In this document: one piece after another, positions 1 to 36,000 of the stretch | Layout: each line of letters starts with the position of its first letter | Position numbering within the stretch: position 1 is the first letter of the stretch | From: Paraspadella gotoi | Lineage: Eukaryota > Animalia > Chaetognatha | NCBI GenBank assembly: GCA_051294375.1 | Contig: CM119265.1 | Location: forward strand, 21,638,278 to 21,702,277 | DNA: 64,000 nt | Direction of reading: 5' to 3' | The notes under the pieces: model-generated | Told to the model about the DNA's origin: nothing | Database searches by the model: none | The model's input: the letters and a program-made list of their open reading frames with translations, nothing else | Made by a program: the position numbers and the translations under genes

Positions 1-3000
1 AAGGCGCCCATGGGATCGGAGCCAGTACTGAGGACGAACACCAGCGGCGTAGTGATGGTCATGTCCTCGTACAGGCTGTGTAGATCCACCGGCGGACTCT
101 CCACGAACTGCTTCCCCAAGTTGACGGTCACGAAGTCCGTCACCGCGGCCACAACCTTCTCCTCTCGGAAGGCTTTGATGAGACACAGTTTTTGAAAGGA
201 CGTTAAACGCAGGTCCCAATGACCCACCACTGCGAAGGAGGAAAGGGGTTTGAGGGGATAGAAAAAGGTTAGGGTCTTTCATATATAACGGATCGATAAG
301 GCCACACTTTCGTCACCGACCAGGATAGTCTCTCTCCACTTCTGGTTCTTTCTTCTTTTTCTTATCGTCTTTGCCCTTGGTGGCGACGTGAGCGGCCTGC
401 TCTTCCTCTTCTTCCTCTTTAGACGGAGGGACGGGAACGTAGGGCGGGGGCTCGGGACCGTAGCCGTCCCATTCGGGTGGATTTAAGCAAACCTAAGATT
501 TCAAAGAGTAAAGGCGAATTATAATAATGACGAAAAGATGCTTCAGGGTTAAAGAGATCCGCAAGAGTAAGGATCGATGTGGTGTTCCTGTTCAAGATGC
601 GAACAGTATTCAACATGCATTATATGCCATTAAAATATAAGCATTCGACATGCTAGCGGTTATGAGACAAAAACTCCATTTTTGTCAAATGATGTTCCGA
701 TAACCATTCGTGAAAAATGAAGCGTCGAGATTATAATAGATGCAAGAGAGCGCGTGCTTAGGAAATCATTACCGAATTCTAACCACCGAAAAGCAGGTCG
801 AAAAATCAAAGAAAAAGACGAAGGTGTGATTTGAATCAAATGCTTACAACGTGCGGCAAACTTAGATCTCTCTCGTCTTCCCAAATTTGAAATCAATTTC
901 CCCTCACCCCCTGCAAAATTCCCGACCTGCGTGTTTCCCAGCGTCAACCAAATGGGAACGGAGTAATACTCCTTCCGGAAATTCTTGAAAGCCTTGCCCA
1001 ACGTGGACATGATGTCACAAGCCAGGCGCCAGAACCGGTCGGAGAGCCAACGGGCGTCGGGCTTGGGGGGATATTCCTTGTCCATGGAACTGCAACCGCG
1101 GAGGAAGAAGTTCCACTCGATGTCGGAGATTTTGCCTTCGCCCCTCATGATTTGCGCGCAGAGCATGAAGGAGAACACGATCTTGTCGCGTTCGAACAAT
1201 CCTCTACGGAGTCGGTGGGAGTGGGGGGGGGAGAGGCGAAGAGAAAAAAAAAGAAGGAAACATTAAATTGGGGGGCGGGAGGGATTTTTTCAACACGGTG
1301 GGATTGACTCCGAAACAGTGATTACCGAAAATAACTTGCGATGGCGGCGAATTCTCAGGAAGCCGTCTATAAACATCCCATCCCCGAAAGAAGTAATAAG
1401 AATCTTGTCAATACTGTTTAAAAGGGTATGTGGAGATGGAAGACTATAAACGGCATTGATTGATCAGAAATTCTCATGGCATCCTTGAAATCCAATAAAT
1501 ATATAATAAATAATAAATATATAATATGAAAAGCGAGTATATTTTTTGCGTACCATGCATATTTCAGTGAACGCATTGTCGAAATGCCACCAGTAGTTCG
1601 CATTTAAGAGCGAATGTGCAGAAAAAACAAAGAACCAAAAAATTACCTGGCGACATTCTTGTACACTGTTATGGTAATGGCGTCGATTAAGATTCTTAAC
1701 CTCCTGAACAGATCATCCGCCTTCGGGGCATTTTCGATACATTGACAAAACAACTGTGACGAGAAGTTTCGTGGCGACAGTTGTGAATTTTTTTCGGGGG
1801 TGTATCGGAGGTGTGATGGGGTAGAAAATGACGCGTGCGGGTCAAAGACGGTGCCATGGAACGAAGGGGCGGGAGTGAAGAACAAAAAGCGGAAACGATT
1901 AACACAAAACATTTTCCGTTACGAATTCTGGGCTTTTTCCCAAAGTTTCTGTTAAAACACGAAAAAAAAACATGCATCTTCCGTCTTTTTGATTCTGCGG
2001 ATCGGGAAATCCACGGGGAAAAATCACCTCGAAATATTCGTGTAAATGGTAATCGTTGTCTGTATTAGGAGAATGCCCAATCTCTTTTTGAGGTCGTCGC
2101 ATTTTTCGCTATTTTCTATGCACATATTAAACAGCTAGGGGGAGATAGTGGGGAAGAATAGGGATTACATGTCAGTAAAAAATTTTTTTTTGCGAATTTA
2201 ATAAACCATTCTTTGCTGTCGTCAAAACTACAATAAAAATGTTAAACCTTTTCTTTCCAGTACCAACGACAAACCTGCGTAAAATATTTGAGCGAGTACT
2301 GGTACATGGGGTCGACCTCGGCCAGGTCGGCCACTACGAAGTACATGACGGAGCCGCGCGTGGCCACCGGGCGATACTTCTCTCTCGCCTCGGAGATGTC
2401 TTTCTCCGTGACTTCGGCGTCGCGCACGCGCACGGAAATCACCGCGGATGTCACTTTGGAGTCGTTGAGTGTGTCGATCAACTCCTCGTCGTCAAGGATG
2501 TTTCCTGAAGGTTGAAGAGATGAATGAGAAAGGAAACAAAAAAAACTTTTAAAAAAAGAACGAAAACTGAAGAAAGAAAGATTCATTATAAACGAAAAGT
2601 CCATCACCTTCAGAATTGAAGAGCAGCTTGAGGATCTTGTCCTCAATGTCTTTGAGCGTCTGCTTGTCGTCGCTGATCTGCTGCATGAGGGTCATTCGCA
2701 ATGACTCTAGGTCAGGACGTTCGAGTCGAACCACATCCGCCAACAGTTGGTCCTCGAGGCCGGATTTGGTCACGGAGAAATTGATAATCGTGACCTTGAT
2801 GCAGACCTCTGTTGGGGTAACCAACGTCATTATTGAGAGAGTAAATTAAAACGGTAATAAAACAGTAAAAATCAATACATTTGCTTATCGAATCCAGATG
2901 TATGAGTCTCACCGGGCAGATAATGCGGGTTCGACAGTTTCGACGTCATGTAGAACTTAAAGTTCTTGTCATAATCGATGTCGGAGTCGCCGAGGCGGAT

Positions 3001-33000: not shown

Positions 33001-36000
33001 CGACGGGTAAGGGCTTTTTCTCACGATCCCCATCACGATCAAATCGACATTACCCTTTCCGAATTCTCGACGCGAAGCTGAGGAAAAAAGACGCTATGAA
33101 AAACCCGCGATTGTTGGTGAAACATCATCATCTTAGTGATGATCACCGGGAAGAGGTCGACGATCCATTTTGCAATGACCGTCGCGTTAACGGAAATCAT
33201 CGATCGCCGATAATGGAGCGTCGACGTCGGCGTCGCATCGATCGAGAAATTGGGAAACATTAGAGAGGCGATCATATTTTCTACTGGTATTCGTTTCATT
33301 CGAGTTTTAGAAGAGAAATCGAGAGAGAAGAGAGAGAGAGAGAGAGAGAGAGAGAGAGAGAGAGAGAGAGAGAGAGAGAGAGAGAGAGAGAGAGAGAGAG
33401 TGAAACTGGAAAAACAGTCCCGCAAAGCTCCGGAGGGTTTTGTATTAGTTCACAGATTCACAATCTTCTTCTTTTCCCGATTAGGAATAAAAAAGAAAGA
33501 AAGGAGTGTCGGGGGAGGAAGGCAGAAATAATCCTCGTCACAAATAATCTGGGGGATATCATAGTCGGCTAAAAAATACTAGACAGAAAGAAAGAAGCGG
33601 AAAAAGCAACTCGCAGTTAAAATCTACGACTTCCCGCCCGCTCAATCTCGCATCGCACACTTGGCGTCAAGACTGACTCGATTCATTCAAACTTCGTGTG
33701 CGATCTTGTTTTTGTTTTTTTGATCGAAAAAAGTAACACGTCATCCGTGAACCGCGATTCAAGGAAAACACGAGCTCTTCCTCCGATTCCAGAGGATTTT
33801 ATAAAAAATGTGAAAGAGTTTGAGTACTATTCAATAAATGACTAAATTTGGTTTGCTAAACATTTTTAAAGAACTTAGAAATTTCATTTTAATTTCTTTC
33901 TATCTTTGAATACGTCTCTTTGAAAGAAAGAATTATAATAGAAAAAAAATCCAATTATCATTAACAAATCAAAAACAAAACTAGTTCGACTAGCTCGTTA
34001 TTTTTACGACTGATTTGAAGCGCAGACATTTATGCGACCCATCGGCAGGCATTAATTAAATTTTAAATTTTCAAAATTGTTTCCCCGTTTCTGATTCCAA
34101 GAATCTCGTTCGTCCGAATCGTCGCATTGATTCTCGTCGGTTAAATTCCTGAAAAACGGGTTAGATCTGTTTCTTCTCGACTCGAGGATCGATTGCGGAT
34201 AGGACTGACATCGACGTTGACGATGACTCCCTCTCGCGTCGCGGGAAAGAGAAGAGAGATGATGAGATCGAATTTGTCAATGAGGGAATGGGTGATTTGC
34301 CATTGAGCAACGCGATTATTGGGATATTTGCAGTCTTACTCGTCTTGATTTATCATCGAGGAATAGAAAGCAGAAACCATTGTTTCGAGACAATGGGTCG
34401 GCCAACAGGTAGCAGGAGATGATATCGGTACTAATTCTGGACGACCCTCGGTGAGAGTTCAACCAAAGAAGAAAAGAAGAATTAAAGGTCGATCAGTGGT
34501 CAAAAGACAGAAACAAACGGAAAGAGAGAGAGAGAGAGAGAGAGAGAGAGAGAGAGAGAGAGAGAGAGAGAGAGAGAGAGAGAGAGAGAGAGAGAGAGAG
34601 AGAGAGAGAGAGAGAGAGAGTTACTCTGTCGCCTTCGATATTGCCATCGCCGTCGCCATCGAAACGGCAACCGGCTGAGATGAGAGACCCGATCAGGTCT
34701 GAGGACGAAGACGATAAAAGGCGTCCGCCTCAATGGAGCGATGGGACGAGAAAATATCAGAGGTCGACGAGTTGACAACCTGTAGAGCGGGATTTCTTCT
34801 TCTCTCGATCGGGAATACCTGGAAAAAGTCGAAAGAAAAAAAAGAAAACAAATTCCCTTCGATGCCGTAGACACAGATGCGTCCTTAGAAGTCAGAACGA
34901 TGAAGGGATGATGTTTTAAGGAGGAACGTCAAGTCAGAGGGTCACATGCAGAGTTGCAGACACCGTGGTGTACGAACGCGTGGCCCTAGGATTGACCCCT
35001 GTCCCTATCAGAGAATGTGGGTCTATTTGTCCTTTGGTCAATCAGCTAATTTATTCAGAAGGGCAAAACTTTTCGGTACCGAGTCAGCGATTCAAAATTG
35101 ATGCAAATTGTTGCGACTTTATTGACTTGACTCGCCCGTATTTTACGTTGTGAAATAATGAAAGTGAATTAAAATAAAAGACCCGCATCGAGAAGATGCG
35201 ATGAGTCGATAATCACGTTATTTTTGACAATCAAACACAATTAGCCGAAAATTCTTCGGTCAATACTTTTATTGCCTTTTTGTGTAAATCACAACTTGAC
35301 TACTGCCGCGCTAACTTAATTAACAGCCAGCAGTTCGATCATGAGATTTAAATAATAATATTACTAAACCAGTAACTATTTTACTATTCTTCTTATTGGT
35401 ATAGCTTATTTTGACACCCACTCTCTTAAACTGACATTATTTTAAATTCAATTAATGATGGCCAACGAGGAATCGTGTCAAAATATCCGTGAGCCTTTCT
35501 CGAAAATCAGGTTTGAATCTCCGCGTCAATTAGCAGGAAAAAGGGGGAGTGTAACGAGATCGCGACGAAGAAAAAACCACCGCTCGATAAGATAAACCGG
35601 TTTTATCTCCCAGTTCAGCATAAATCTTCCAAAGCGAATCTCTCTCTCTCTCTCTCTCTCTCTCTCTCTCTCTCTCTCAAATTCCGGTTTTTAACGCTGC
35701 CTCGGGCCACTAAAACTCGTAGATCGAGAAAATGAAACGATTACGATTCATCTATAACTTTTCACTGCCTGAAAATATTAATGAGGAATTAAGCTGACTT
35801 GATCAATGAAGCGACCAGTTCCACCAGTTCCAAAATCTTAGAGAAATGATTTAGGTGAAATTGAGAAAGCGATTAACTTACCCTCGATCGGTAGTTGCGA
35901 CGGGGCCGAAGTGAGGGGTTTTGGCGTAGTAGTATCTGTGTGTGACTGACCCCAGGCGCGTTTGGGCCTCTTCGACTCATCGTGCTTCGCCGACGACCAA

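Follow-up and report, generated by a model that had tools for sequence, protein, structure and literature searches.

Can a single axonemal dynein gene encode several motors by alternative splicing, and could the choice between them be made by a splicing regulator that lies inside one of its own introns? Differences between axonemal dynein motors are usually attributed to paralogous genes. The question is raised here by a stretch of 64,000 nucleotides (nt) from the chaetognath Paraspadella gotoi (positions 21,638,278 to 21,702,277 of contig CM119265.1, assembly GCA_051294375.1; the whole stretch is called the window in the following), in which a first-pass annotation had described a splice-tunable axonemal dynein that hosts its own candidate splicing regulator. 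Our results support a reduced version of this description. We put the probability at about 0.6 that the window holds a DNAH6-type dynein heavy chain gene with a complete and expressed ESRP/fusilli gene nested in intron 5 in the same orientation, and with two duplicated pairs of exons whose splicing is likely either-or.

The identity of the dynein gene is the least contentious part of this answer. The window is eukaryotic DNA with a G+C content of about 40%. A Pfam scan of its open frames finds dynein domains on the minus strand with descending coordinates: DHC_N2 (21790-19089), AAA_6 (18230-16400), Dynein_AAA_lid (15215-14778), AAA_7 (11066-10139), AAA_lid_1 (at about 9790), AAA_8 (7950-5189), the microtubule stalk (4872-3531) and AAA_9 (3597-2245). 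This is the order expected for a dynein, that is, the linker (DHC_N2), followed by AAA1 to AAA5, with the stalk and microtubule-binding domain between AAA4 and AAA5. AAA2 (AAA_5) has no Pfam match on single open frames; it is covered by the colinear alignment to P0298, a full-length DNAH6-like protein of 4150 amino acids. The named best matches of the dynein frames are DNAH6. Among solved structures, the AAA1 exon matches DNAH6 chains best (E 3e-25), followed by DNAH3 (1e-19) and, more weakly, other chains. By homology, the minus-strand gene is hence shown to be a DNAH6-type axonemal (inner-arm) dynein heavy chain, as the first-pass annotation had proposed from the letters.

To obtain an exon model we mapped DNAH6 homologues by tblastn, refined the junctions for GT/GC..AG ends, frame and alignment score, and corrected poor spots by eye. 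The part of the gene within the window (3..38119, minus strand), which rests on Pfam order, tblastn and junction refinement, comprises 70 exons between an ATG at 38119 and the window edge at position 3. Its 69 introns (68 GT-AG, one GC-AG) have a median length of 103 nt, and 20 of them are at least 200 nt long. The only GC-AG intron lies at 8642-9460 (minus strand), with the donor CAG|GCGAGT at 9460. The model runs through 3587 codons without a stop. It breaks off just as AAA6 begins, at the window edge (about residue 3547 of 4150); the remainder of AAA6 and the C-terminal domain fall outside the window. It is 64.1% identical to P0298 and colinear with residues 1 to about 3547, and the largest gap is no longer than 12 residues. 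P0298 is thus fully accounted for, and therefore no extra exon is required for a complete dynein protein. The extent first proposed, 773..35881, was too short, as the gene starts at about 38119 and leaves the window at position 3. Several junctions suggested by homology alone proved incorrect and were changed (20722/20468, 927/275 and a number of GC-donor alternatives), and the 42-nt "intron" of the homology-only junction 27238/27195 is really a deletion relative to the homologue.

Transcripts agree with this model over the range in which they were compared, 20954-37000, which does not include either of the two duplicated exon pairs. The transcript contigs come from sequencing run X1, which we take to be a transcriptome, as its contigs are spliced and the introns have GT..AG ends; it contains 58% of the sampled words of 22001-32000. 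A 4683-nt X1 contig lies on the dynein gene and shows no differences in the pieces listed (24 of 1367). The introns it skips have CT..AC ends on the plus strand, which is GT..AG on the minus strand. The homology model reproduces all 14 of the dynein joints listed (15 of 37 joints were listed), and the tail may contain alternative joints beyond these. A match of a relative's contig (X3) inside an intron, at 27718-27761, was dropped; it covers a GAAA-rich low-complexity stretch.

When P0298 is mapped to the gene, only two matches of at least 28 bits lie off the main chain as a second copy of an adjacent exon (17794-17741 and 1765-1637). A search of the model protein against itself returns the same two pairs as the top off-diagonal matches (32.0 and 30.6 bits), with everything else at 26.9 bits or below. 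A third apparent duplicate at 25059-25106 scores 24 bits, which is noise level, and was rejected. Hence, by homology, the dynein gene is shown to contain exactly two duplicated exon pairs. In this respect the first-pass annotation, which had listed two such pairs, is borne out by both searches.

The first pair lies on the part of P0298 between AAA_9 and D6, which we take as the AAA5 small or lid region. Exon A (2028..2134, minus strand) and exon B (1647..1753, minus strand) are both 107 nt long and both run from phase 0 to phase 2, each with an AG acceptor and a GT(A/G)A donor. They share 19 of 35 residues and 56 of 107 bases; the proportion of differing synonymous sites, pS, is about 1.0 and that of non-synonymous sites, pN, is 0.34. 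Exon A is nearer to other DNAH6 proteins. It aligns to DNAH6 residues 3320-3359 in solved structures (E 1.4e-5), and its three top matches there are all DNAH6. Exon B aligns weakly to the same place (human DNAH6 3325-3359, E 0.02-0.6). We scored splice sites with matrices built from the gene's own 68 introns. On this scale the two sites of exon A fall at the 32nd and 76th percentiles of real sites, and those of exon B at the 21st (acceptor) and 93rd (donor). Since 107 is not divisible by three, exactly one of the two copies is needed for an in-frame mRNA; each mRNA would have to carry one 107-nt exon, because none or both would shift the frame.

The second pair follows the Walker B motif of AAA1. 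Copy 1 (17841..17897, minus strand) is the 57-nt 3' end of exon 17841-17993 and stands directly after the Walker B sequence DEFNR. Copy 2 (17732..17788, minus strand) is a 57-nt segment in the next intron with a T-rich acceptor and a GTAAGG donor of its own, which score at the 46th and 38th percentiles of real sites. The copies run from phase 0 to phase 0 and are identical in 13 of 19 residues and 34 of 57 bases (pS 0.96 vs pN 0.22). Their first 12 codons differ by 10 synonymous changes and a single non-synonymous one. Copy 2 is likely, judging from these properties, an alternative 3' part of the AAA1 exon. It would replace copy 1, rather than being added to it, through an internal GT at 17897-17896 (GAG|GTTCTG). 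Among real donors this GT ranks at the 15th percentile; of the 449 exonic GTs, 21 have an equal or higher score. In the solved DNAH6 structure 8j07 (chain g5), this place corresponds to residues of about 1533-1551.

If the observed base changes are placed neutrally, the copies retain on average 7.6 of 35 identical residues in the first pair and 6.1 of 19 in the second. The observed identity was reached in none of 200,000 neutral trials for the first pair (19/35) and in two of 200,000 for the second (13/19). Together with the divergence at synonymous sites, the simulation implies that both copies of each pair have been retained as coding sequence since old duplications. We therefore regard long-term selection on both copies of both pairs as shown. 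In each pair the two copies also have a similar length, equal splice phases and homology, which are among the criteria of Pillmann et al. (2011). An acceptor and a donor of their own are present for exon A, exon B and copy 2, and copy 1 has only the internal GT. It is thus likely, from their structure, that the two pairs are used as mutually exclusive exons. Either-or use of both would give up to four motor variants, and the choice of copies may then differ between types of cilia.

Several points weigh against this interpretation. First, selection in the past is no proof of present use, and both exon B and copy 2 lie outside the range in which transcripts were compared. Second, the homologues carry the canonical form. 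All 19 of the homologues with a Walker B motif (among 412 proteins retrieved) are canonical and resemble copy 1, all five that match the search pattern for the first pair are nearer to exon A than to exon B, and a B-like form was found in no known relative among the homologues examined. Third, copy 1 has no acceptor of its own, and the exclusive use of copy 2 needs the weak internal donor at the 15th percentile; copy 2 could be an added cassette or a relic instead of a replacement. Fourth, the linker exon 20722-20814 (minus strand) shows an apparent 1-nt frameshift within a conserved motif, where two frames are seen in the sequence. An error of the assembly or a genuine allele could account for it; if real, it would argue for a decaying dynein gene. 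A tandem acceptor at 20468, 2 nt further on, would restore the frame past this exon at the cost of 13 residues. The counterweight is that the dynein frame is otherwise intact and is matched by the 4683-nt transcript contig.

The first two points can be pressed further. One could argue that exon B and copy 2 are silent relics, old tandem duplicates that never enter the mRNA, and that the gene makes a single protein. The compared transcripts lend exon B and copy 2 no RNA support, the homologues examined (19/19 and 5/5) are canonical, exon B is only weakly similar to solved dyneins, and its acceptor, at the 21st percentile, is modest. We nevertheless consider this explanation unlikely, if far from negligible. 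A relic whose synonymous sites are saturated would be expected to have lost its open frame, its exact length and its usable splice sites, and to share fewer than the 19/35 and 13/19 residues observed; the neutral means are well below these values, and the neutral trials hardly ever reach them. Hence, we prefer the reading in which both pairs are alternative exons.

The first-pass annotation went further and claimed that most of the longer dynein introns hold frame-compatible hidden exons. We counted, in introns of at least 200 nt, all segments of 3-72 nt in steps of three that are flanked by AG and GT and free of stops in the frame set by the phase of the intron. At least one such segment is present in 20 of 20 introns, compared to 97.3% of dinucleotide-shuffled introns; in total there are 788 segments, compared to 686 ± 32 in the shuffles. 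The claim thus describes no more than what is expected by chance. If both sites are required to score at or above the 10th percentile of real sites, 16 segments remain, compared to 6.2 ± 2.6 in the shuffles. Copy 2 accounts for three of these; of the others, five fall in the intron that hosts the ESRP gene (two of them inside its coding sequence) and three in an intron that hosts an EF-hand gene. Shuffling also removes local T-rich tracts, and we do not take the excess of 16 as support. Most of the remaining hidden micro-exons are chance AG..GT pairs. Of the splice-tunable dynein, then, what stands are the two pairs, with their equal lengths and phases, real-grade splice sites and a divergence biased towards synonymous sites; the micro-exon part does not.

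Two of the candidates deserve a separate word. The segment at 321-492 (minus strand), which had been described as an intronic hidden exon, is an ordinary constitutive exon, as judged from its sequence, good splice sites and fitting phases. It encodes a poorly conserved loop rich in E and K, falls inside what homology alone had drawn as a single intron (927 to 275), and closes the gap relative to P0298 when included. Real exons such as this one may be part of what was called hidden. The second candidate is a 72-nt in-frame cassette in the variable linker loop at 19767..19838 (minus strand). It looks exon-like from its real-grade splice sites and its codon usage. Its codon log-odds of 0.75 per codon exceed both the median of real exons (0.52) and the 99th percentile of intronic windows free of stops (0.63). 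The GC content is 0.57, and homology is absent.

We now turn to the gene inside the gene. The first-pass annotation had placed an ESRP/fusilli gene in an early dynein intron on the same strand, and this is indeed where it lies: its open frame (29264-31885, minus strand, 874 codons) falls between dynein exons 5 and 6. The host, intron 5 (28330..35881, minus strand, placed by sequence and frame), is with 7552 nt the longest intron of the gene. Its first base is 35881, the very coordinate that had been taken for the end of the dynein.

Four N-terminal dynein exons (38027-38119, 37817-37918, 37616-37718 and 37471-37553, minus strand) are predicted from homology to seven DNAH6 N-termini and from splice logic. 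The seven N-termini align in order to 38048-38119, 37808-37912 and 37608-37718, and then to 28136-28330; exon 4 (37471-37553) and exon 5 (35882-36026) were placed by splice logic. Exon 5 (35882..36026, minus strand), the last before the ESRP-hosting intron, has AG and GTAAGT sites and a phase that fits exons 4 and 6, and joining it to exon 6 (28138-28329) preserves the frame. Read depth also fits this placement. With 52 and 93 nt of exon 5 in the bins 35399-35933 and 35934-36468 and a dynein contig depth of 183.2, depths of 17.8 and 31.8 are predicted, and 17.8 and 32.4 are observed. About 28 nt upstream of the dynein ATG there is a further AG acceptor (38120-38147, minus strand), which suggests an additional non-coding 5' exon beyond 38147.

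The ESRP gene is complete and expressed. A 3629-nt X1 contig matches its main exon (28784..32201, minus strand) without a gap and with no differences. Within this exon the coding sequence (29261-31774, minus strand) encodes 837 amino acids plus the stop codon in a single, unspliced exon, and the protein from the methionine at 31774 to the stop is colinear with full-length relatives. The contig exceeds 28784-32201 by 211 nt and an acceptor (..TTTCCAG) stands immediately upstream of 32201; therefore, at least one further 5' exon of the ESRP gene lies upstream. Pfam finds RRM_1 in two stretches of the frame (E 3.1e-14), and RNase_T at E 1.2e-4 with 23.1 bits, below the cut-off of 24. Named ESRP1, ESRP2 and fusilli proteins, which carry the precomputed families PF28442, PF00076 and PF28441, match with 42-46% identity and E values down to 2e-173. 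Four unnamed transcript-derived proteins are 69-78% identical. It is as good as shown that a complete and expressed ESRP gene lies in intron 5 of the dynein gene on the same strand.

Two observations were kept apart from this gene. A second X1 contig, with a depth of 201.6, matches the ESRP coding sequence at 30104-30155 and 30750-30766 with several differences; its probable source is a related RRM gene at another place in the genome. The skip 30155-30750, with AA..AT ends, belongs to such another contig with different letters and was rejected as an intron of the ESRP gene.

How the ESRP gene came to lie in this intron is suggested by its structure. A coding sequence in one exon, amid a gene with an intron every 150 nt or so, suggests an origin by retroposition into the intron, although no poly(A) remnant or target-site duplication is visible in the sequence of the ESRP locus. 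In the bivalve Mya arenaria, DNAH6-like and ESRP-like proteins are each recorded on one contig, and these contigs differ in length (52.9 and 75.8 Mb); therefore the nesting is probably not common to that species. Nesting on the same strand also poses a question of its own. By what means does transcription of the host gene pass the intronic poly(A) site, and is there one promoter for both genes?

Does the nested regulator act on the exons of its host? ESRP binds UGG- and GGU-rich RNA and acts in a position-dependent manner. All five motifs that the first-pass annotation had picked out are in place on the minus strand, each downstream of an exon or candidate exon. Three of them belong to the first pair. 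Exon A is followed after 52 nt by a UGCAUG (1971-1976); behind exon B stand a UGGUGG at a distance of 55 nt (1587-1592) and a second UGCAUG at 88 nt (1554-1559). One could hence propose that the nested ESRP binds UGG-rich sites near host exons and sets the dynein variant, for example in an epithelial cilium as opposed to sperm or neurons, with regulator and target inherited and switched on together. The gene is, after all, intact, expressed and nested on the same strand, and besides the UGGUGG after exon B there is only one other intronic UGGUGG, which stands where the host intron begins, 56 nt downstream of exon 5.

We nevertheless give this proposal a very small chance. UGGUGG occurs just six times in the 38.2 kb of minus strand, and the four remaining sites fall within exons or at an acceptor. 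By our estimate, the probability that one such hexamer stands by chance near one of the four alternative exons is roughly 0.04. UGGUG (28 times) and GGUGG (25 times) show no local cluster in the dynein gene, and both are absent, like GCAUG, from the whole intron around the AAA1 pair. The cluster of UGG/GGU-rich motifs that would be seen beside the alternative exons, as for an ESRP-regulated exon, was not found. In Mya arenaria the two genes apparently lie on contigs of different length, and the titles and abstract openings of the papers listed in our searches mention no link between ESRP and dynein. Thus the dynein hosts a potential splicing regulator by position, and the regulatory link is not supported: UGGUGG is not enriched, and the single site beside exon B has no counterpart at the AAA1 pair. 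Control of host dynein exons by ESRP is speculation, and we found no tie to it in the sequence.

An even more elaborate scenario would make the locus a regulator-target module. ESRP would be co-transcribed with the dynein, perhaps from a shared 5' exon, and would pick exon B through UGGUGG, such that the motor of epithelial cilia differs from that of sperm or other cilia. For this we see the slimmest of chances.

A different factor could make the choice in the first pair. Downstream UGCAUG or GCAUG promotes exon inclusion, and an Rbfox-type factor binding UGCAUG, not ESRP, might set exon A against exon B. UGCAUG follows both exons, and within 100 nt downstream of annotated donors it is rare (2 of 69, one being the GC donor at 9460). 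On the other hand, the sites were selected after the sequence had been viewed, a motif behind both copies leaves the direction of the switch ambiguous, and GCAUG is absent near the AAA1 pair. Moreover, the nine UGCAUG in the 38.2 kb are what is expected from length alone, as is also approximately true for UGGUGG. We think such control rather improbable. As a lead for the first pair UGCAUG is better than the ESRP motif, yet weak, and both were picked with the sequence in view.

If both exon pairs are used, one inner-arm dynein gene would vary the helix after the Walker B motif of AAA1, the main ATPase site, as well as the lid helix of AAA5. This makes it testable whether the cilia types of one animal tune their motor kinetics by splicing. 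If the alternative exons are unused, we are left with an ordinary dynein gene containing an ordinary nested gene.

The ESRP gene is not the only one found inside the dynein. A 3419-nt dynein intron between AAA2 and AAA3 (11392-14810) contains, on the opposite strand, a gene for an EF-hand protein (13329..14127, plus strand). This gene has three exons or more and was recognised from Pfam EF-hand matches on three open frames of the plus strand. Centrin is a light chain of some inner-arm dyneins; as a centrin, this gene was rejected, the similarity being limited to generic calmodulin- or centrin-like loops. The 1633-nt intron 23576-25208 contains two transcribed stretches. At 23629-24698 the summed contig depth reaches 17566 and 5143 in two bins. 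This depth is made up of numerous X1 contigs with a likeness of 80-95% and suggests a repeat family that is expressed; the stretch has neither a second copy within the window nor an Rfam match. A gathering scan of the whole window against Rfam gave no matches at all. In the same intron a spliced X1 contig of 557 nt (depth 11.9) lies on 24559-24863 and 24942-25193. Its splice ends fit a plus-strand GT..AG intron, and its plus-strand frame of 99 amino acids ends hydrophobic and is without a Pfam match; 24559-25193 is possibly a small antisense gene. Dynein introns also carry the microsatellites (TTCT)24 at 4504-4600, (AGAA)33 at 10910-11043, (TC)108 at 20503-20713, (GA)40 at 33321-33400 and (AG)49 at 34523-34620.

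An open frame for the BAR-domain protein FAM92 (39786-40505, minus strand; Pfam E 3.5e-53) lies a short distance upstream of the dynein and shares its strand. FAM92 is a protein of the ciliary base, and hence two cilia genes may stand side by side here. Further along, the plus strand has a 770-codon open frame without a Pfam match (45844-48156), a galactose-1-phosphate uridylyltransferase frame (60120-61019; Pfam E 5e-62) and a frame with a partial PARP catalytic domain (62610-63281; Pfam E 1.6e-8).

How does this locus compare with known systems? For the host gene, the closest known proteins are the DNAH6 chains of human, mouse and others in axoneme structures (8j07_g5, 9fqr_Xz and 9d2f_T), which give the best matches for the exons tested and have the same order of domains. 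Unlike the present gene, their sequences record no alternative exon pairs.

Alternative exons in dynein motor domains have been published before (PMC3228551, PMC5100056). The cytoplasmic dynein heavy chain SmDHC1 of Schistosoma mansoni has a mutually exclusive exon in its motor domain (Pillmann et al. 2011, PMC3228551). Both genes have tandem homologous exons of identical length and conserved splice phases in the motor domain of a dynein heavy chain. In contrast to SmDHC1, the present gene is axonemal, of the inner-arm DNAH6 type, and has two clusters, one in AAA1 after Walker B and one in the AAA5 lid. The first copy of one of these clusters is fused to the upstream exon, and the either-or use of the present exons is predicted from the sequence.

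The nested gene resembles ESRP1, ESRP2 and fusilli in its exonuclease-like N-terminal domain, its RRMs and a similarity over the full length. These proteins control the choice between FGFR2 IIIb and IIIc, and the targets proposed here are, like IIIb and IIIc, mutually exclusive exons. Unlike these genes, the nested one has its coding sequence in one exon, with 42-46% identity to them, and no UGG-rich cluster stands near the alternative exons of the dynein.

Nested (intronic) genes and retrogenes occur in animal genomes. Like these, the present ESRP is a complete gene with its own 3' end in a long intron and an intronless coding sequence. A point of contrast is its orientation: as host and nested gene share a strand, dynein mRNA can only be made if transcription continues past the poly(A) site of the ESRP gene. 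In the titles and abstract openings of the papers listed in our searches, neither alternative exon pairs in DNAH6 nor an ESRP gene inside a dynein are described. Tandem alternative exons in a motor gene and a gene nested in an intron are both of known kinds; a functional link between the two would be new.

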